From Deltaproteobacteria bacterium (GTDB lineage: Bacteria; Desulfobacterota; Binatia; UBA9968; JAJDTQ01), in NCBI GenBank assembly GCA_026712905.1, contig JAPOPM010000098.1, forward strand, positions 10,234 to 74,233: a stretch of 64,000 nt of DNA, written 5' to 3'. Position 1 is the first letter of the stretch, and each line of letters starts with the position of its first letter. The notes under the pieces are model-generated. The model saw only the letters and a program-made list of their open reading frames with translations, had not been told where the DNA came from and made no database searches. Position numbers and translations under genes: made by a program. Below are positions 7,197 through 11,834 of this stretch, in pieces.

Positions 7197-7224
7197 CACT
7201 GGCGAGCCAGGGAACCCTCGAAAC

Positions 7225-7373
7225 GTCATTCCCGTGAATTGGGGTGTGGCAATACACCGCCAAACCACGACACGGCACCGCCACCCCGAATCGTCGGTCC
7301 CGCGGAAGCAGGCTGTGTCGAAACTCCGTCCGGGAGAGGCAACGACCCCCTGAATCGTCATTGCCGCGGAAGC
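7225..7373. repeat. Degenerate/truncated copies of the REP + MITE-end junction
   Basis: CGTCATTCCCG (~7234), GAATCGTCGGTCCCGCGGAAGCA-GGCTGTGTCGAAACTC (~7288-7326), GAATCGTCATTGCCGCGGAAGC (~7352-7373). Confidence 0.6.
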
Positions 7374-7561
7374 GGCTGTGTCAAAACTGGTGAGGCACCA
7401 CCCCCCGAATCGTCATTCCCGCGGAAGCGGGAATCCAGGGGTGGCCGGGCGGGGAAACGCCCCTGCAGTGCCCCACCACCACCCCTGGATTCCCGCTTCC
7501 GCGGGAATGACGATTCGGGGGGCGGTGCCGGTTTCAATTCAAGTGGCAGTCTAACGCAGCC
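7374..7561. mobile_element. Second copy of the ~190 bp MITE-like element, opposite orientation to 374-563
   Basis: Ends GGCTGTGTCAAAACTG and CAGTCTAACGCAGCC; long internal hairpin GAATCGTCATTCCCGCGGAAGCGGGAATCCAGGGGTGG...CCACCCCTGGATTCCCGCTTCCGCGGGAATGACGATTC; loop closely similar to the reverse complement of copy 1. Confidence 0.7.
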
Positions 7562-7572
7562 TGCCGCGCGCA

Positions 7573-8736
7573 TCAGATGTGATTTTCGATCTCGTCCAGC
7601 GGCGTCACCCAAACGCGGTCCGTGTCGATGGGGTAGGCGCTTCCCTGCGGCACCACGACGAACAGCCTGTCCAGGTCCAGCAGATCGACGGCCGTCCGGC
7701 TTCCCTTGGTGAGGCTGGGGTTCGATGAAGTCTTGAACTCGAACCCGATCCGTTTCCCGTCGCGCTCCACAACCAAATCGATTTCCTCTCCGGTGCGCGT
7801 CCTGAAAAAGCCGTACATCCCTCGCGGCTGAAGCAGAGAAAGAACGTTCTCCAGCGCAAACCCTTCCCAGCACGCACCGTAGACCGGATGGCCGTACAAC
7901 TTGTCGAAGCTGTCCAGTTCCAGCAGGCAGGTCAGCAGCCCGGAATCCCGTACATAGAGCTTGGGCGATTTGACCAACCGCTTCTTTGTGTTGACGGCGA
8001 AGGGCGGTAGCCGGCGCATCATGAACGTGGCTTCGAGGATGTCGATGTGCCTCTTCAGGGTGGGGTGCGTTCGGTCCAGGGATTGCCCGAGGGCCGAGTA
8101 GTTCACGATCTGGCCGTGCAGGTGGCAGCACATGAGCCAGAGCCGCCGCATGTATTGCGGTGTCAGATCGATTCCGAACTGACGCAAGTCGCGCTCGACG
8201 AAGGTCTGTATGTAGCTCTCGCGCCAGCGAAAGCTGCGGCCGTCCGTGGTTGCCAGGTAACTGGAAGGGAACCCGCCGCGCCACAACAACCTACGCCAGT
8301 CCGTGGGTCCCTTCTCCGGCCGTTCCAACTCTTTCTGATGGAACGGGGTGATGTAGACATAGGACAGCCGCCCCGCGAGAGTCTCGGAAGACTGCCGAAG
8401 AAGCTCGGGAGAAGACGAACCGAGGATCAGGAACCGCCCGGCACGACGGTCCTCGTCGACCAACGAACGCAACAGCGGGAACAGGTCGGGCCGCAGTTGC
8501 ACCTCGTCGATGCACACCAACTTGTCACGGTGCAGGGAGAGAAAGGTCTCCGGGTCCTGTAAACGGGACAGGTGGGATGGGCGTTCGAGGTCCAGGTACA
8601 GAGTATTCGGGCGTGACGATATCACCGCCTTGGCAAGAGTGGTCTTCCCTGCCTGCCGCGGTCCGAGGATGGCCACCGCCGGAAACTGTTCCAGATCCGT
8701 GAGGACCGTATGGTGGACTTGCCGTTGGATCTTCAT
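7573..8736 (-). CDS. AAA+ ATP-binding protein (AAA_14 + DUF4143, C-terminal PD-(D/E)xK-like motif)
   Basis: Walker A GPRQAGKT, Walker B IDEVQ, LILGSS, ETLAGR, GGFP, KRLVKSPKLY..DSG, EIDLVVE..GFEFK. Confidence 0.92.
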   Translation of the reverse strand: MKIQRQVHHTVLTDLEQFPAVAILGPRQAGKTTLAKAVISSRPNTLYLDLERPSHLSRLQDPETFLSLHRDKLVCIDEVQLRPDLFPLLRSLVDEDRRAGRFLILGSSSPELLRQSSETLAGRLSYVYITPFHQKELERPEKGPTDWRRLLWRGGFPSSYLATTDGRSFRWRESYIQTFVERDLRQFGIDLTPQYMRRLWLMCCHLHGQIVNYSALGQSLDRTHPTLKRHIDILEATFMMRRLPPFAVNTKKRLVKSPKLYVRDSGLLTCLLELDSFDKLYGHPVYGACWEGFALENVLSLLQPRGMYGFFRTRTGEEIDLVVERDGKRIGFEFKTSSNPSLTKGSRTAVDLLDLDRLFVVVPQGSAYPIDTDRVWVTPLDEIENHI

Positions 8737-8739
8737 ATG

Positions 8740-8766
8740 CAAATTGTAAATGACATTTACAATTTG
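8740..8766. promoter_or_regulatory. Perfect 13-bp-arm palindrome (operator-like) abutting the AAA ATPase start
   Basis: CAAATTGTAAATG-A-CATTTACAATTTG, AT-rich in a GC-rich genome, 3 nt upstream of ATG 8736. Confidence 0.6.
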
Positions 8767-8837
8767 TCAAATTTATCGCTCAGGTTTGTGAGAGGTTGTT
8801 GGTTCCGGCGGTGAAGACTGCCCGGGACGGCAACGGA

Positions 8838-9302
8838 CTAGGGTTCAGTCACACAGGTAACGGGTGTGTCCTTAGCTACGAGTTCCTTCCAGTCGATGCC
8901 CAACAACTCTCTAGCGGACAGGGCCTTATCCCCAGCGGGATCCCCTTCGCGAAACATCTTGACAGTGAAAACCTGATTATGGGTTCCGGCCATGATGGGT
9001 TGGCCCCCGTAAACGTTCACGTTGCCGGATGGCGTGACCTGTGCCGTAATGGGCGTATGCCCGACCTGCCGGTTGGTACTGGAAGAACCACTACCTACGA
9101 TCATGAAACGATCGAATTCCCGTTTGATTGTTTCTATCGAGGCTTGATGCAAGGCCACCCGTTCGGCGCCCTCTTGGCCGCAAGCCGGAGCGGCTCGGGC
9201 TGTGATTTGCACGGCATCCGTTGCCAGTGGGACAGTGCTAACACGGACGCATCCTGTCAGAAGCATGGCCAAGACGAGCAAGGCAACTCTCATCAGTTTC
9301 AC
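8838..9302 (-). CDS. Hypothetical lipoprotein (island cargo)
   Basis: Signal peptide with lipobox LTGC; GGAGG RBS; visibly lower GC than flanks. Confidence 0.75.
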   Translation of the reverse strand: MKLMRVALLVLAMLLTGCVRVSTVPLATDAVQITARAAPACGQEGAERVALHQASIETIKREFDRFMIVGSGSSSTNRQVGHTPITAQVTPSGNVNVYGGQPIMAGTHNQVFTVKMFREGDPAGDKALSARELLGIDWKELVAKDTPVTCVTEP

Positions 9303-9359
9303 CTCCAGACGCCAAACCGATAACCGTCATCGACGCGACCTGTCAAGCCAAGCCGGTGT

Positions 9360-9560
9360 CTCTCCGCCATAGTGGGCGCGACCGATTCGTCGCCATCCCA
9401 CAAGCTGGTGAGAATGACACAGCTGATCGAACTGAAGAAAGACATCCGCACCGCACGGTACAAGGCATGTTGCTGGAAATGGCGCTGCCGGGTTGGAGGG
9501 AGGTCCCGAGAGCATTGCCGCTACGGGACTCTCACCTTCGAGGCTCGCGCCGATGCAGTC
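9360..9560 (+). pseudogene. Frameshifted relic of a phage portal-like gene, paralogous to 9839-10741
   Basis: Segments in different frames FVAIPQAGENDT / LIELKKDIRTARYK / GMLLEMALPGWREVPRALPLRD align with LLAVPQDGGDGDE / LAALKADIRTARGK / ALLVETSAAGWGEGRGAAPARD. Confidence 0.65.
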
Positions 9561-9569
9561 AGACGCCGA

Positions 9570-9623
9570 TGTCAAAGTCAGCTGAAAATGTCCCATTTGT
9601 GTCAATCGAAAAGGTCCCACTTC
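9570..9623 (+). mobile_element. IS21-family-like terminal sequence (isolated end; no istA/istB)
   Basis: Starts TGTCAA and carries two tandem sub-terminal repeats GAAAATGTCCCATTT / GAAAAGGTCCCACTT, the architecture typical of IS21 ends. Confidence 0.55.
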
Positions 9624-9659
9624 TGATGAGGGGGGTGGTGCGGGACAGACGCCCTCCGG

Positions 9660-9848
9660 TTGGATCCGCTCCTGGGTGAGGGGATGGTGGAGTTCAAGGC
9701 CGTCAAGCAGACCTTCACGAACGGCGTTCGGCGCATTCAGGAAGCGGCCCTGATGGGCGTGGGCCTGGTGGACTCGCCCAGCTACGCGGGCAGTCTCGCG
9801 GAAGTGCGACGCCGGGACCGGGCACGGAGGCGGCGCGTATGGCTGTGA
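9660..9848 (+). pseudogene. 3' fragment of an HK97-type prohead protease gene
   Basis: VEFKAVKQTFTNGVRRIQEAALMGVGLVDSPSYAGS matches the HK97 protease C-terminus pattern (S.EF......R.I.EA.L..V.LV..P.Y); N-terminus absent. Confidence 0.6.
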
Positions 9849-10741
9849 CGTTGACCGGGGCCGCCTTGGCCGAAGCCTTGGCCGTGAATCAGGCGCTTGC
9901 GGATCGGCTCTTGCCCGTCGTGACAGCCTTGGTGGATATGCACGTCATTCGGCTGGACGGCACGGGCCGCGTCCGGCTGATTCCCGCGTCAAGCGGGCAC
10001 TGGGAGGGCTCGCACGATCCGGCAAGCTGGACGGTCCGGGCGACGGTTTACGGGCCGAGCACCAGCACGACATGGAATCTCCCGGCGGCGGCCGTGGTGT
10101 TCGTCCGCTGGGGCGGCACGCCGGGGCAACCATACGTCGGCACCGGGCCAACGTCGTGGGCACACACGTCAACGCGCTTGATGGCCGAAGCCGAGCGGTC
10201 CCTGGCGGACGAAGCGGGCGGGCCGCTGGCGAACCTTCTTGCGGTTCCACAGGATGGCGGCGACGGCGACGAAAGCGACCCGCTGGCGGCGCTGAAAGCC
10301 GACATTCGCACGGCTCGCGGCAAGGCGCTTCTCGTGGAGACTTCGGCGGCCGGTTGGGGCGAAGGTCGGGGCGCGGCGCCGGCTCGCGACTGGCAGGCGT
10401 CCAGGTTGGGGCCGATGCCCCCGGACAGCATGGTCAAGGCGGCTGACAGCGCGTTCTCGCGCGTCCTGGCTGCCTGCGGTATGCCCCCGTCCCTGTTCCT
10501 GGACAGCGACGGCACAAGTCAGCGAGAAACCGTCCGGCGCTGGCACTTGAACACGGTGTTGCCGCTGGCCCGGCTGGTCGAGCACGAGTTGACCGAGAAG
10601 CTGGCGGAGCCGGTCCAGCTCCAGTTCGACACCTACGCTATGGACATGGTGAGCCGGGCGCAGGTGGTCAGCAAGTTGACGGCGGCCGGCGTGGCCCTGC
10701 CCGTGGCGCTGGAAGCCGTCGGCCTGGGAGGTGACTTATGA
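9839..10741 (+). CDS. Phage portal-like protein (C-terminal part) with a head-tail-connector-like N-terminus; probable deletion chimera
   Basis: C-terminal VLAACGMPPSLF..SQRETVRRW..TVLPLARLVEHELTEKL..VQLQFD..DMVSRAQVVSKL is portal-like; first ~35 aa (AALAEAL...ADRLLPVVTALV) resemble connector N-termini; 300 aa is short for a portal. Confidence 0.6.
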   Translation: MAVTLTGAALAEALAVNQALADRLLPVVTALVDMHVIRLDGTGRVRLIPASSGHWEGSHDPASWTVRATVYGPSTSTTWNLPAAAVVFVRWGGTPGQPYVGTGPTSWAHTSTRLMAEAERSLADEAGGPLANLLAVPQDGGDGDESDPLAALKADIRTARGKALLVETSAAGWGEGRGAAPARDWQASRLGPMPPDSMVKAADSAFSRVLAACGMPPSLFLDSDGTSQRETVRRWHLNTVLPLARLVEHELTEKLAEPVQLQFDTYAMDMVSRAQVVSKLTAAGVALPVALEAVGLGGDL

Positions 10742-10824
10742 TTTCGCTCTGCGCGGACTGCTGTAGACCGCTGCCCCCGTCCGGCGTGTGTCTGAACTGC
10801 ACGCAACCCCGCCCGGCGAAGTGA
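10738..10824 (+). CDS. 28-aa CxxC...CxxC micro-protein (not in ORF track)
   Basis: MISLCADCCRPLPPSGVCLNCTQPRPAK; ATGA overlap with the portal stop and GTGA overlap with the next ORF; GGAGG upstream. Confidence 0.45.
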   Translation: MISLCADCCRPLPPSGVCLNCTQPRPAK

Positions 10825-11006
10825 AGCCGCGCGGCCTGCCAAGCCCGGAGACCGGCTGGCACACGAGACCGGCGAATGACTGCCCGCGCGACTTCAAGGT
10901 CACGGGCCGAGTTCGCACCGTCCACGGGCGCACCGTCCACCTATGGGAACACCGGAACCCCGACGGCGTTGCCGTCTGGAAAACGAAACAGCCGATCCGT
11001 GAGTGA
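10821..11006 (+). CDS. Small hypothetical phage-like protein (61 aa)
   Basis: GTG start overlapping the previous stop; in frame with track ORF 10788-11006. Confidence 0.4.
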   Translation: MKPRGLPSPETGWHTRPANDCPRDFKVTGRVRTVHGRTVHLWEHRNPDGVAVWKTKQPIRE

Positions 11007-11023
11007 CCCGTCGGCGAACGGAT

Positions 11024-11683
11024 TCAAGGGTTGGAGGATTTCTTGTTTGTGGTGGATGCGTCCTTGGCCAGTTGGACACGTTTGGGAAGCGAGAATGTGT
11101 AAACGAGAAACAAATTTGTAAAGTCGCTTAGTTGAGCCACCTTGGTTTTGTCAAAGTTTTCCCCGTGAACTGCCTCATTGCCATCTAAACGAATACGATC
11201 TGCCAAGCCCCGTAGTTCTGGAGTGATCTTCCCCGCCTTCTCCAGGTAGACGATGCGGTCATAAAGCGTCATGTCTTTCTTGTCCGGGGCGAGGCGCTTT
11301 GTCGCTATGTCGAGGACTCGTCTGAACATTATCCCCGCGCTTGTGAGTTTCGCGTCGCGGAGATTTTCTAATCCCTCTACATAGTCCTTGGCGAGTTTGC
11401 ACGGGACATGGGCAGGTGCCTCCAGTCTGGCTGGAGAAGGGTAAACAGCGTTAATCCGGAAACCATCAGTTCGTGGGTCGCCGATGCAATTTATGGGGTC
11501 TAAGTCGCCGCCGATAACTGCAAAGAATCTTACGACCATGCCCCCGTGACAGTGGCGGCACACGAAAAGGGTGTTCCACTGGGGGATCGCCTCTTCTTCA
11601 TCAGAGAAGTATTGTGAACCGTGGCATGTGAAGGCGGTCCTTGAGGCCGCGCAATGGGGACAGTCGTGGATAAGTTCGGCCAT
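11024..11683 (-). CDS. DUF4145 domain protein with N-terminal Zn-ribbon (island cargo)
   Basis: CPHC..CRHC; SAGIMFRRVLD...L..RI..L...G.I...IRLDGNEAVH signature; lower GC. Confidence 0.85.
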   Translation of the reverse strand: MAELIHDCPHCAASRTAFTCHGSQYFSDEEEAIPQWNTLFVCRHCHGGMVVRFFAVIGGDLDPINCIGDPRTDGFRINAVYPSPARLEAPAHVPCKLAKDYVEGLENLRDAKLTSAGIMFRRVLDIATKRLAPDKKDMTLYDRIVYLEKAGKITPELRGLADRIRLDGNEAVHGENFDKTKVAQLSDFTNLFLVYTFSLPKRVQLAKDASTTNKKSSNP

Positions 11684-11691
11684 TGTATCTG

Positions 11692-11758
11692 TGGTGACCT
11701 ATTGGTGACTTATCGCTTTCTCCGTTCCCGCCGATCCCGCCTAACCCCTTGATTTTGT
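11692..11758. other. att-junction architecture: arm-type direct repeats plus IHF site next to the tRNA 3' end
   Basis: TGGTGAC x2 at 11-bp spacing (11692, 11703); 11742-11754 reverse complement AATCAAGGGGTTA matches the IHF consensus WATCAANNNNTTR exactly. Confidence 0.6.
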
Positions 11759-11834
11759 TGGTGAGCCGTGTCGGGCTCGAACCGACGACCCTCTGCTTAA
11801 AAGGCAGATGCTCTACCTGCTGAGCTAACGGCTC
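11759..11834 (-). tRNA. tRNA-Lys (anticodon TTT)
   Basis: Reverse complement GAGCCGTTAGCTCAGCAGGTAGAGCATCTGCCTTTTAAGCAGAGGGTCGTCGGTTCGAGCCCGACACGGCTCACCA; full cloverleaf with encoded CCA. Confidence 0.97.

Follow-up and report, generated by a model that had tools for sequence, protein, structure and literature searches.

In the att sites of lambda/P4-type tyrosine integrases, arm-type and IHF sites flank a core that lies within a tRNA 3' end. Cryptic prophage or satellite remnants at tRNA or tmRNA genes, such as CP4-57 at ssrA of E. coli, are immobile and partly deleted, with retained accessory or defence genes. Among phage satellites, which are elements that parasitize viruses, the capsid-forming PICIs (cfPICI; prototype EcCIEDL933; SatelliteFinder model, PMC10085698) are small, tRNA-integrating elements without tail or lysis genes, described from Proteobacteria and Firmicutes. 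RAZR (PD-T7-4) of E. coli is a ring-activated zinc-finger RNase with a HEPN domain that senses portal rings, its known trigger (PMC13017515). Here we describe a locus that touches on all four, in a stretch of 64,000 nucleotides that was analysed as a whole (the window). With a probability of about 0.85, it holds the immobile fossil of serially integrated, capsid-forming, tail-less, cfPICI-like satellites of ~10.5 kb at the 3' end of a single-copy tRNA-Lys(UUU) gene.

Anatomy of the island and its att arm

The island occupies ~8743–11758, with an ancestral AAA_14/DUF4143 ATPase gene on its left and, on its right, the 3' end of tRNA-Lys(UUU), the sole copy of this gene in the 4.8-Mb assembly. 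From left to right it comprises a lipoprotein gene, a portal scrap, an IS21 end, a protease 3' end, an adaptor'-portal fusion, a post-portal gene, a DUF4145 gene and an att arm (Table 1). All the features listed in an earlier, sequence-only reading of this DNA were found in place, as was the lower GC content of the cargo genes (0.52–0.58 across the DUF4145 and lipoprotein genes, versus ~0.65 in the flanks). The identical 300-aa fusion protein is encoded on 13 contigs from independent samples, and the five of these retrieved for comparison match the window at 100% over the entire island, so the structure is not an assembly artefact. Synteny around the site is genus-wide (PrpD-PrpB-HisPhos-cupin-(ATPase)-tRNA-Lys-OCD), with ~117 bp from tRNA-Lys to the ATPase start in same-genus genomes that lack the island. 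Five same-genus genomes have an empty tRNA-Lys site, and hence the block is not conserved core synteny.

Table 1. Positions of the island's features and flanking genes in the window
Feature	Position	Strand	Basis or remark
Ancestral AAA_14/DUF4143 ATPase gene	7573–8742	-	left flank of island
Left border of island	8743–8837	.	spacer, ATPase gene start to first island gene
Lipoprotein gene, 154 aa	8838–9302	-	lipobox LLTGC; low GC
Portal relic 2, decayed, frameshifted, portal residues ~185–245	9383–9569	+	similarity to L003 portal
IS21-family solo right-end remnant, 118 bp	9570–9687	+	identity to same-genome IS ends
S78 (HK97-type) prohead protease gene 3' end, ~53 codons	9688–9848	+	amino-acid identity to L006 protease
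Head-tail adaptor-like gene (p104), first 33 codons, in-frame fusion to portal	9839–9937	+	
Portal relic 1, portal codons 87–352	9938–10741	+	similarity to L003 portal
Post-portal small gene homologue, 72-aa ORF	10788–11006	+	similarity to L070
Intact cargo gene, 219 aa, ZnF-DUF4145	11024–11683	-	PF13643, PHROG 1305
Two TGGTGAC direct repeats, 7 bp, 11-bp periodicity	11692–11709	+	putative arm-type integrase-binding sites
IHF consensus site AATCAAGGGGTTA	11742–11754	-	exact match; 5 nt from att core
tRNA-Lys(ttt) = tRNA-Lys(UUU)	11759–11834	-	right flank of island

The 3'-terminal 45 nt of the tRNA gene form the att core used by these elements, the same 45 nt being duplicated at the element bounds in the related loci G009 and L070. 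Next to it, WATCAANNNNTTR is matched exactly, 5 nt from the tRNA 3' end and only once in the 64 kb (0.23 expected). An IHF-like motif with 0–1 mismatch holds the same position at most other occupied sites examined, that of G009 diverging more, and is absent from the empty tRNA-Lys sites examined. The two TGGTGAC copies are likely to be arm-type sites for integrase binding in the att arm on the tRNA side, judging from their distribution: the pair recurs at the same distance from the tRNA at all occupied tRNA-Lys sites examined (OZ220712, G001, G013, L009, G009 and L070) bar G004, a minimal scar that has kept one copy, and at none of the empty ones, and L009 and L070 have the heptamer in their integrase-side arm too. 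For the window island, neither a second copy of the core nor an arm on the integrase side was found. At its left border, where a sigma-70-like promoter (11/12) for the ATPase gene lies at 8770–8743, exact-repeat and Smith–Waterman searches for a tRNA 3' fragment scored no better than in shuffled sequence. The att architecture, which the sequence-only reading had called intact, is therefore so on the tRNA side, where the arm is one that recurs only at occupied sites, and has lost its second core and integrase-side arm. A fragment-mapping similarity search likewise recovered no trace of Int, TerL or capsid in the window, in keeping with the loss of integrase, terminase and major capsid that had been proposed. 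Excision and packaging are both beyond the island, which has no integrase, second att core, terminase or capsid gene.

The head genes nearest the tRNA lie in two coupled ORFs (9660–9848 and 9839–10741) that overlap by 10 nt, the start of the first falling within the IS21 end. Positions 9687–9806 encode a protease fragment with 72.5% amino-acid identity to residues 120–159 of the S78 protease of the intact relative L006 (E=5e-15), and the native overlap of the protease and adaptor genes is kept (9825–9936 versus 9329–9443 of L003, 83%). The p104 piece is 82% identical to residues 4–36 of L003 p104, the p104 family having weak matches to the PHROG head-tail adaptor Ad1. Relic 1 shows 79.6% nucleotide and 84% amino-acid identity to the L003 portal. 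The fusion ORF scores only 35.7 bits against PF04860, under the 39.1 cut-off, but its portal nature is borne out by over 100 full-length (~352 aa) portal-family proteins with which it shares 74–84% identity. Compared with intact elements, an internal deletion of ~815 bp has removed the rest of p104, all of p93 and portal codons 1–86. Further right, 10739–10800 matches the sequence directly 3' of the L070 portal, and the 72-aa ORF, which has an in-frame stop upstream, is 36% identical to the 107-aa post-portal protein of L070 (E=5e-9).

The DUF4145 cargo gene

The cargo protein combines an N-terminal zinc finger (two CxxC) with a C-terminal DUF4145/HEPN domain that carries R165-x7-H173; C42, C45, R165, G168, N169 and H173 are invariant. 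It matches PF13643 (E=4e-11), PHROG 1305 (E=6e-36) and, over nearly its full length, the PADLOC PD-T7-4 model (E=8.5e-6), and a profile search links it to PDB 9y9c, a 24-chain DUF4145 protein (E=1.4e-6). A single-sequence PDB search with the protein gave no match. In Foldseek searches with the protein model no match reached E<=0.001 and the RAZR entry was not returned, the C-terminal domain being weakly HEPN-like (1o3u, E=0.26, probability 0.98). These scores, weak at E ~1e-6, suggest distant homology of the protein to RAZR (PD-T7-4), a defence character that had gone unnoticed when the DUF4145 cargo was recognised from the sequence. Homology predicts an abortive-infection RNase that is switched on by assembling around ring-shaped phage proteins such as portals. 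The gene is retained in eight related loci, the neighbouring portal being trimmed to varying extents, and is likely the sole part of the island that is active today. It is convergent with the fusion ORF and shares no operon with it.

Intact relatives, probable tandem integration and erosion

At least 1309 homologues of the portal ORF were found, in a family hosted by Binatia, Rhodospirillaceae, Acidimicrobiia and others. At E<=1e-40 they occur in two of the 301 sampled genomes of the phylum, and close homologues (>=75% identity) in only three of the 25 same-genus genomes searched. Intact relatives are tail-less elements of 10–10.5 kb, bounded on both sides by tRNA repeats (in five of them, L006 included, repeats of 15–21 bp of a tRNA 3' end, 10.0–10.5 kb apart), with the gene order Int-AlpA-TerL-HNH-capsid-protease-adaptor-portal-cargo. 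The Int of L006 is P4-type with an arm-binding domain, and the element further encodes AlpA, TerL, HNH, an HK97-type MCP and the S78 protease; L003 has, in order, capsid, a 99-aa gene, S78 protease, an adaptor-like gene, a 93-aa gene and portal. Neither L006 nor the other intact relatives carry tail or lysis genes, and no pri-rep or TerS gene was recognised in the family. Elements with these genes would be expected to make small capsids of their own and to depend on a helper phage for tails, and gene content points to a satellite lifestyle, with helper dependence and tail hijacking. A near-complete element resides at the same tRNA-Lys, in the same orientation, in the same-genus genome G009, where the 45-nt core is repeated and the TerL reading frame is split in two.

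The left part of the island holds a second set of remains. Relic 2 is 72% identical at the nucleotide level to portal codons 196–238 of L003 (L003 10588–10712; tblastn E=0.006) and has no detectable similarity to relic 1; we attribute it to an older element, farther from the tRNA. The adjoining IS21 end begins with the terminus TGTCAA at 9570, and its interior, which would extend rightwards, is cut off after 118 bp. It is 93–94% identical to IS ends on two contigs of the same genome (C5 and C172), both followed by the istB 3' end (IstB C-terminus), and a related copy lies on C4 (IstB_IS21, PF01695, E=8e-13). Although the erosion had been ascribed to IS21-mediated deletion, the IS is itself cut short, which excludes a deletion of the canonical IS-adjacent type.

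Two portal pieces need not mean two elements, and it is conceivable, if unlikely, that a single element integrated once and that the second scrap dates from an old duplication within it or from a rearrangement driven by IS21. The IS21 end is located exactly between the pieces, where no att core copy or integrase remnant is found. Against this, the lack of similarity between the relics, together with the identity of relic 2 to the L003 portal, indicates a different, older source, and the geometry is that expected for a tandem, with the older copy farther from the tRNA. Moreover, L070 displays the tandem state directly (ATPase, RAZR-like gene, arm, 45-nt tRNA fragment, int, ... portal of 343 aa, full tRNA-Lys), and unrelated family members occupy the same site in G009 and G001.

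Under serial integration, which upholds the earlier proposal of at least two related HK97-type elements in tandem, the older element would have integrated first, leaving the portal scrap and perhaps the lipoprotein gene. A younger element would then have entered between it and the tRNA, and an IS21-family element would have inserted into the older portal. A single deletion may have taken most of the IS, the junction of the two elements and the younger Int, regulators, TerL, HNH, capsid and most of the protease, before a second one, of ~815 bp, placed portal codon 87 in frame behind the first 33 adaptor codons. Of the younger element, the end next to the tRNA has survived intact, with the portal 3' part, post-portal gene, cargo gene and att arm. 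The lipoprotein gene (GC 0.55–0.58), which may have been cargo of the older element, has no Pfam match and no tblastn counterpart in related loci, and is strain-specific. Its position is unexplained by the tandem model.

Related genomes display a nested deletion series at this locus. The portal residues kept beside the RAZR-like gene are 87–352 in the window, ~60–351 in L007 (with a TGG-to-TAG stop), 224–351 in L077 and L078, 262–338 in L065, 276–328 in L067 and none in L070; decay is heavy in the L065, L067 and L078 copies. The window fragment does not resemble an old pseudogene. Its frame is open and identical in 13 of 13 contigs carrying the fusion, and one of 69 family-invariant columns is altered (W to G). 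Compared with the L007 counterpart, its dS of 0.58 matches that of flanking core genes (0.59 and 0.62) and its dN/dS is 0.195, three-point estimates being ~0.2 on both terminal branches. The low dN/dS, core-like dS and open frame leave three readings: the truncations are recent and independent, incoming elements have repeatedly refreshed the sequence, or the fragment is under selection.

In the last case the fusion, a portal without its N-terminus, might be an exapted gene that hampers incoming satellites or phages in building their capsids, or modulates the neighbouring portal-sensing RAZR-like protein. The window-branch dN/dS is the same as in intact family members, the fusion is in frame and keeps its native translational coupling to the upstream ORF, and portal 3' parts adjoin RAZR-like genes in seven related loci, portal rings being what triggers RAZR (PMC13017515). 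We nevertheless consider exaptation improbable. The truncation point differs from lineage to lineage (87, ~60, 224, 262, 276), which fits nested random deletions and not a selected form; an invariant Trp is lost in the window copy, and the nonsense codon of L007 falls at an invariant Trp. In addition, the RAZR-like gene of L070 persists without an adjacent portal piece, and the fusion, convergent with the RAZR-like gene, has no promoter-like site upstream. Least credible is an ordinary tailed HK97-like prophage that lost its tail and lysis genes along with the rest: although portal, S78 protease and adaptor are all generic HK97-type head genes, the nearest intact relatives (portal <=84% identity) are att-closed elements devoid of tail and lysis genes, their non-canonical capsid-protease-adaptor-portal order is reflected in the native protease/adaptor junction kept by the window, and no tailed phage with such an order was seen among the loci examined.

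Comparison with described systems

Taken as the remains of serially integrated satellites, the island is well accounted for as a genomic fossil, of a fairly ordinary kind, in which only a probable anti-phage RNase gene still looks functional. The parent family, aptly called cf-PICI-like and tail-less by the sequence-only reading, resembles the cfPICI in its small size, tRNA integration and absence of tail and lysis genes, and in carrying Int, AlpA, TerL, HNH, an HK97-type capsid, a serine prohead protease, a portal and a head-tail adaptor. As in satellites generally, a variable cargo slot can hold defence genes. It differs from the cfPICI in its order (TerL-HNH-capsid-protease-adaptor-portal, with the portal last), in having no recognised pri-rep or TerS, and in its range, the 10–10.5-kb parent elements occurring in Binatia, Rhodospirillaceae, Acidimicrobiia and others. 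The window itself is a non-mobile wreck, and the likeness of its parent family is one of gene content.

The att region follows the lambda/P4 pattern: the integrases of intact relatives have an Arm-DNA-bind_3 domain, both of the relatives' arms carry the 11-bp-spaced heptamers, and an IHF-like site adjoins the 45-nt tRNA-derived core. Unlike complete att sites, the window keeps only the integrase-distal arm, and its sites are predicted ones. RAZR and the cargo protein are both 219 aa long, share the domain layout, the R-x7-H spacing (R146/H154 in RAZR) and a variable N-terminal half, and are linked by the PD-T7-4 HMM and, via profile, the 9y9c sequence; the similarity is, however, very distant, and a satellite cargo gene adjoining a portal gene is a setting not found in the RAZR paper (PMC13017515). 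With CP4-57-type remnants the island shares immobility, partial deletion, a retained defence-type gene, and an IS insertion with internal deletions. It differs from them in that its source was a capsid-forming, satellite-like family of uncultured soil lineages, and in that its decay can be followed through graded deletion states in related genomes.

The island between the ATPase gene and tRNA-Lys

The stretch between the AAA_14/DUF4143 ATPase gene and the 3′ end of tRNA-Lys(UUU) is what remains of cfPICI-like satellites that integrated one after another and can no longer move; they come from a family of tail-less, capsid-encoding, tRNA-integrating elements of about 10 kb (hereafter the parent family). 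All the ORFs named in the sequence-only reading were found in the window, and GC content does fall, as it had noticed, to 0.52–0.58 in the DUF4145 and lipoprotein genes compared with ~0.65 in the surroundings. One attachment arm and one gene that is probably a RAZR-like defence gene are what the island retains intact. The tRNA-Lys(UUU) gene is the single copy in the whole assembly (4.8 Mb, 280 contigs). Thirteen contigs from independent samples encode the 300-aa product of the fusion ORF, in which an adaptor-like stub is joined to a truncated portal; the five that were retrieved match the window at 100% identity across up to 7.3 kb. This agreement rules out an assembly artefact at either the IS21/protease or the adaptor/portal junction. 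Samples containing this strain are JGI 3300027386, 3300027328 and 3300027391 and SRR6214543.

Features of the island and its borders (window coordinates; L003 and L006 are related loci)
Feature	Position	Strand	Match
AAA_14/DUF4143 ATPase gene	7573-8770 (promoter included)		PDC-S01 (PADLOC), E=2e-87
Lipoprotein ORF	8838-9302	-	
Portal relic 2	9383-9569		
Aligned part of relic 2 (second, weaker portal piece)	9406-9530		72% identity to L003
IS21 end	9570-9687		93-94% identity to ends of contigs C5 and C172
First of two overlapping ORFs	9660-9848	+	
Protease fragment	9687-9806		L006 protease residues 120-159, 72.5% identity, E=5e-15
Protease stop and first 33 codons of 104-aa gene	9825-9936		83% identity to L003
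Second of two overlapping ORFs (fusion ORF)	9839-10741	+	
Portal codons 87-350	9938-10728		79.6% nucleotide, 84% amino-acid identity to L003
DUF4145 ORF (cargo gene)	11024-11683	-	PF13643, E=4e-11
TGGTGAC pair	11692-11709		
IHF site	11742-11754		WATCAANNNNTTR
tRNA-Lys(ttt)	11759-11834	-	ARAGORN

Synteny in 16 genomes of the same genus follows the order PrpD-PrpB-HisPhos-cupin-(AAA_14/DUF4143 ATPase)-tRNA-Lys-OCD. The cupin gene lies 150–700 bp from the tRNA in three of these genomes (G005, G014 and G006) and the ATPase start ~117 bp from it in two others (G015 and G012), whereas in the window ~3 kb separates the ATPase start (8742) from the tRNA 3′ end (11759). From this difference it follows that the island was inserted at the tRNA 3′ end; the left limit first proposed, 8770, was about right. 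The alternative that relatives carry this block as conserved core synteny is ruled out by the empty sites in same-genus genomes. In G004 (locus L057, 14300–14400) the ATPase and tRNA are laid out as in G015 and G012, but an att scar of ~80 bp stands directly before the full tRNA. The scar combines one arm repeat and an IHF-like site with a degenerate piece of the tRNA 3′ end; a past element has been deleted almost completely from this otherwise empty site.

Several features of the neighbourhood lie outside the island. The ATPase gene, just beyond its edge, is the ancestral neighbour of tRNA-Lys in the genus and strongly matches a PADLOC candidate defence family; an 11/12 sigma-70-like promoter overlapping a palindrome is found at its start. 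C-terminal remnants of it persist in G003, G007, G008 and G011, and it is absent from G005, G006 and G014. In G009 (locus L050, 1548–9630), the OCD gene and the 5′ side of tRNA-Lys are ~8 kb apart, compared with ~180 bp in the window, which marks a distinct insertion on the opposite flank of the tRNA. The cupin-ATPase interval (7240–7560) contains REP/MITE-like repeats, with translations containing FPRKRESR and LDSRFRGNDD, which recur at 80–90% identity in related metagenomic contigs (loci L003, L066 and L067); in L003, ARAGORN annotates four 92-nt copies of a repeat as tRNA-Arg(tct).

The IHF consensus matches once in the 64-kb window (0.23 matches expected), five bases off the tRNA 3′ end, and the two TGGTGAC heptamers are 11 bp apart. 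We aligned the 130 bp adjoining the tRNA 3′ end from 18 loci. Occupied sites carry a heptamer pair ((T/C)GGTGA(C/T), TGCTGAC or TGCTTAC) with 11-bp spacing, ~50–67 bp from the core, and an IHF-like motif directly at the core, as seen in the window, OZ220712 (L007), G001, G013, L009, G009 and L070; as exceptions, the G004 scar has one heptamer only and the IHF-like motif of G009 is further from consensus. Empty tRNA-Lys sites in the same alignment have neither the heptamer pair nor the IHF-like motif. In L009 and L070 the integrase-side arm, just upstream of int, also contains two or three copies of the heptamer, and the integrases of relatives carry an Arm-DNA-bind_3 domain. The comparison of occupied and empty sites thus upholds the arm-type and IHF reading, but the att architecture, described earlier as intact, comprises one arm and no detectable second core. 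Exact repeats (≥11 nt) of the tRNA 3′ end were sought over 24 kb, and the island and tRNA gene were compared with the whole genome by blastn (E≤1e-3); neither search found a second copy. A degenerate core candidate at ~8809 scored below shuffled sequence and was dropped.

Head-gene fragments and a proposed tandem origin

The 300-aa ORF scores 35.7 bits against PF04860, just below the Pfam gathering cut-off of 39.1. It has at least 1309 homologues, some on chromosomes up to 10 Mb; the best 120 are 68–84% identical and typically ~352 aa in length. Full-length portal relatives, 74–84% identical to the window ORF, do match PF04860, and hence the homology to portals is secure despite the sub-cut-off score of the fragment itself. 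In L003 the gene order is capsid (403 aa), a 99-aa gene, S78 protease (219 aa), a 104-aa gene with weak head-tail adaptor matches, a 93-aa gene and portal (352 aa). Alignment of the window to this locus indicates that a deletion of ~815 bp created an in-frame junction between the adaptor stub and portal codon 87.

The protease fragment that had been proposed is recovered by similarity to L006, a locus on a complete Binatia chromosome (G004) from the same genus. Moreover, the integrase, terminase and capsid genes are indeed gone: tblastn with the Int, AlpA, TerL, HNH and capsid proteins of relatives gave no match in window 7197–11760. Portal relic 2 is frameshifted and still matches L003, but has no detectable similarity to the other portal copy of the window. 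The lipoprotein was considered as a homologue of the secreted-protein cargo adjoining the tRNA in G001 and G007; no similarity was found.

The ends of own-genome contigs C5 and C172 that resemble the IS21 end of the island start with TGTCAA and run on into the 3′ end of istB, and a related IS end on contig C4 encodes the IstB C-terminus (PF01695, E=8e-13). The terminus, read from the sequence, is TGTCAA with repeated TGTCA/TGTCC blocks. The assembly has no full-length copy of this IS, since contigs C5 and C172 end within it, and for that reason IstA was not seen. The copy in the window ends after 118 bp and abuts the protease fragment directly. An IS21 end is therefore present as described, but since the IS itself is truncated, the deletion attributed to it is not demonstrated to be IS21-mediated. 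Solo IS21-family right ends also occur elsewhere: one on C4 (39150–39490) follows an mgtE-like gene and keeps only the last ~50 istB codons, and another, 81% identical, is found in L066.

The proposal that at least two related elements integrated in tandem is supported by a tandem at the same locus in L070, where the order is ATPase, DUF4145 gene, arm with IHF-like site, 45-nt tRNA-Lys 3′ fragment and int, and then TerL, HNH, capsid, protease, portal (343 aa) and the full tRNA-Lys. This is exactly the tandem state needed to explain the window. According to the history that we propose, a newer element would enter between the older element and the tRNA; the older copy in the window would be the strongly decayed relic 2, further from the tRNA, in which the IS21 end sits, and one deletion, from inside the IS to codon ~165 of the newer element's protease, would have removed all between. 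A second relic in the same genome (locus L002, C188:1–2525) starts with a tyrosine integrase C-terminus, continues with a C-terminal portal piece (residues ~231–348, 36–38% identical) and then has a DNA methyltransferase-HNH fusion gene that is intact. It thus repeats the pattern of the window, with retained ends and a deleted middle.

A RAZR-like cargo gene beside an eroding portal

The cargo gene encodes a 219-aa protein with two N-terminal CxxC pairs (C8xxC11 and C42xxC45); the second pair (C42, C45) does not vary among 15 homologues, the first can be aligned with PDB 9y9c, and the C-terminal motif R165-x2-GN-x-A-x-H173 is invariant. The protein matches PHROG 1305 (E=6e-36) and, over nearly its full length, the PADLOC PD-T7-4 model (E=8.5e-6, 23 bits). 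PD-T7-4 has been renamed RAZR, a zinc-finger/HEPN RNase that is active as a 24-mer around phage ring proteins including portals, mediates abortive infection and has R146 and H154 as catalytic residues (PMC13017515). Likewise, the cargo protein has an N-terminal zinc finger and a C-terminal DUF4145 (HEPN) domain, in which R165-x7-H173 reproduces the R146/H154 spacing. A profile of the 15 sequences retrieved 9y9c (E=1.4e-6), a 219-aa 'DUF4145 domain-containing protein' with 24 chains; the single sequence found no match in PDB with phmmer, which suggests a distant member of the family. In the AlphaFold model (mean pLDDT 85.6), the C-terminal domain shows weak, non-significant HEPN similarity by Foldseek (best 1o3u, E=0.26, probability 0.98); a Foldseek search with the model returned nothing at E≤0.001, and the RAZR entry was not among its matches. 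Overall, the motifs and profile matches indicate that this is probably a RAZR-like defence gene, with a predicted activity to match. Eight further loci of this satellite family have a RAZR-like gene at the end nearest the tRNA, and one of them, at tRNA-Gly (L066), indicates that the gene travels with the element. A relative of a portal-ring sensor beside a satellite portal raises the question of how a portal-building element would carry a portal-ring-triggered suicide RNase without self-activation.

At the tRNA-Lys/OCD locus, a portal piece neighbouring the RAZR-like gene is preserved to differing extents. Portal residues 87–352 are retained in the window, ~60–351 in L007 (where a supposed frameshift is actually a TGG-to-TAG nonsense change at an invariant Trp), 224–351 in L077 and L078 (joined to a capsid N-terminal stub), 262–338 in L065, 276–328 in L067 and none beside the RAZR-like gene of L070. 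The RAZR-like gene is open in all these loci, with a single apparent frameshift in L070 that we discount because the assembly is from long reads and the site is a short run of G. A nested series of this kind would be expected from erosion that proceeds from the integrase side and is halted only where the convergent cargo gene or the essential tRNA would suffer. As the truncation points differ, the truncations are independent. Loss driven by autoimmunity, such that an intact RAZR excludes an intact portal, is unsupported, since L070 has both if its frameshift is a sequencing error. The portal relics of L007 (~9990), L051 (G007, ~9146) and L066 (~2782), independent of one another, all start within a few codons of residue 58–65, at different attachment sites (tRNA-Lys, tmRNA and tRNA-Gly, respectively) and with unrelated upstream sequences; this shared start may reflect a deletion hotspot, a domain boundary or chance. 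Many database portal entries start at the internal Met87.

The window portal fragment shows no relaxed constraint. Compared with L007, its dS is 0.58 (flanking OCD 0.59, cupin 0.62) and its dN/dS 0.195; three-point estimates with four outgroups are mostly ~0.2 per terminal branch (range 0.13–0.42), and one of 69 invariant residues is changed (W to G). We read this as recent truncation of copies formerly under element-level selection, and, because tandem arrays exist at the site, these copies may also have been refreshed by recombination with incoming elements. The same low dN/dS would be expected if the portal-adaptor fusion were kept by selection as the working partner of the adjacent RAZR-like sensor, forming a domesticated two-gene defence module in which a portal that does not form rings could act as a decoy or poison subunit tuning the RNase, or could block head assembly by incoming satellites or phages. 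We regard such a module as very improbable: breakpoints vary among lineages, the L007 portal contains a nonsense codon, the RAZR-like gene of L070 persists without any portal piece beside it, the fusion and the cargo gene are convergent, and a promoter scan in front of the fusion ORF found no promoter-like site.

The locus alone is a fossil that changes little, and its value is comparative. The window and eight related loci make up a natural series running from intact element through tandem array and nested deletions to cargo gene alone, in which the satellite is worn away while the defence cargo is retained. The main appeal lies in this series together with the pairing of a portal-ring sensor and a satellite portal.

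The parent family compared with cfPICIs

The MAGs with related loci carry the labels Binatia, Thermodesulfobacteriota, Rhodospirillaceae and Acidimicrobiia, and two more are labelled simply 'bacterium'. The distribution of the parent family is patchy: of 25 genomes of the genus that were searched, 3 have close portal homologues (≥75% identity), and of 301 genomes sampled from the phylum, 2 have homologues at E≤1e-40. Each of L005, L006, L008, L009 and L010 has, 10.0–10.5 kb beyond a tRNA gene (Glu, Arg, Asn, Lys and Glu, respectively), a 15–21-bp repeat of its 3′ end. The repeats of L006 enclose a P4-type integrase with arm-binding domain, AlpA, TerL, HNH, HK97-type capsid, S78 protease, adaptor-like gene and portal. 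At the same tRNA-Lys, G009, another genome of the genus, carries a near-complete element oriented as in the window, with a 45-nt repeat of the tRNA 3′ end at both borders; it is distant (30–39% amino-acid identity) and its TerL frame is split in two. Across the family, a P4-type integrase (PF00589, PF13356) adjoins the tRNA, and the tRNA 3′ repeats, 15–45 nt long, are 10.0–10.5 kb apart.

The AlpA-type regulator (L006 3535–3729, PF05930, E=8e-18) is kept in L008 and L010. Packaging genes comprise TerL (PHROG 9, E=2e-34) and HNH (PF21431, E=1e-7; PHROG 589), with no TerS recognised in these relatives, and the head genes match PF05065 (capsid), PF04586 (protease), PF04860 (portal) and, weakly, PHROG 477/442 (adaptor). 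Neither Pfam nor PHROGs yielded a primase or replicase match for the ORFs that separate int from TerL in L006 and L009. Among the ORFs scanned in the att-bounded 10.5 kb of L006 and from int to capsid in L009, no tail or holin/lysin family was matched; one ORF of L006 has a weak neck-protein match. The TerL-HNH pair moves within the family, lying after the portal in L005 (8704–10406) and inverted in L010 (4770–6487), and the capsid-protease-adaptor-portal block is constant.

The parent family appears to be undescribed in the searchable literature. It represents widespread tail-less, capsid-encoding integrative elements in little-studied soil phyla, in which the head genes are unusually ordered and the att arm follows a conserved plan. 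HK97-type head genes usually run portal, protease, capsid. In the parent family the portal is last, a contrast drawn with that usual HK97-type order.

With its own capsid, prohead protease, portal and adaptor, Int and att repeats, AlpA and no tail or lysis genes, the parent family has the gene set of cfPICIs as defined previously (PMC10085698). It differs in its hosts, in its terminal portal and in lacking a recognised pri-rep or TerS; the tail-less gene set of the relatives favours the cf-PICI-like origin first proposed. The observation is borne out overall, and its interpretation was essentially correct. The window itself keeps only fragments of head genes and has lost the integrase and the second core. 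The relic is a decayed new member of an already known kind of element.
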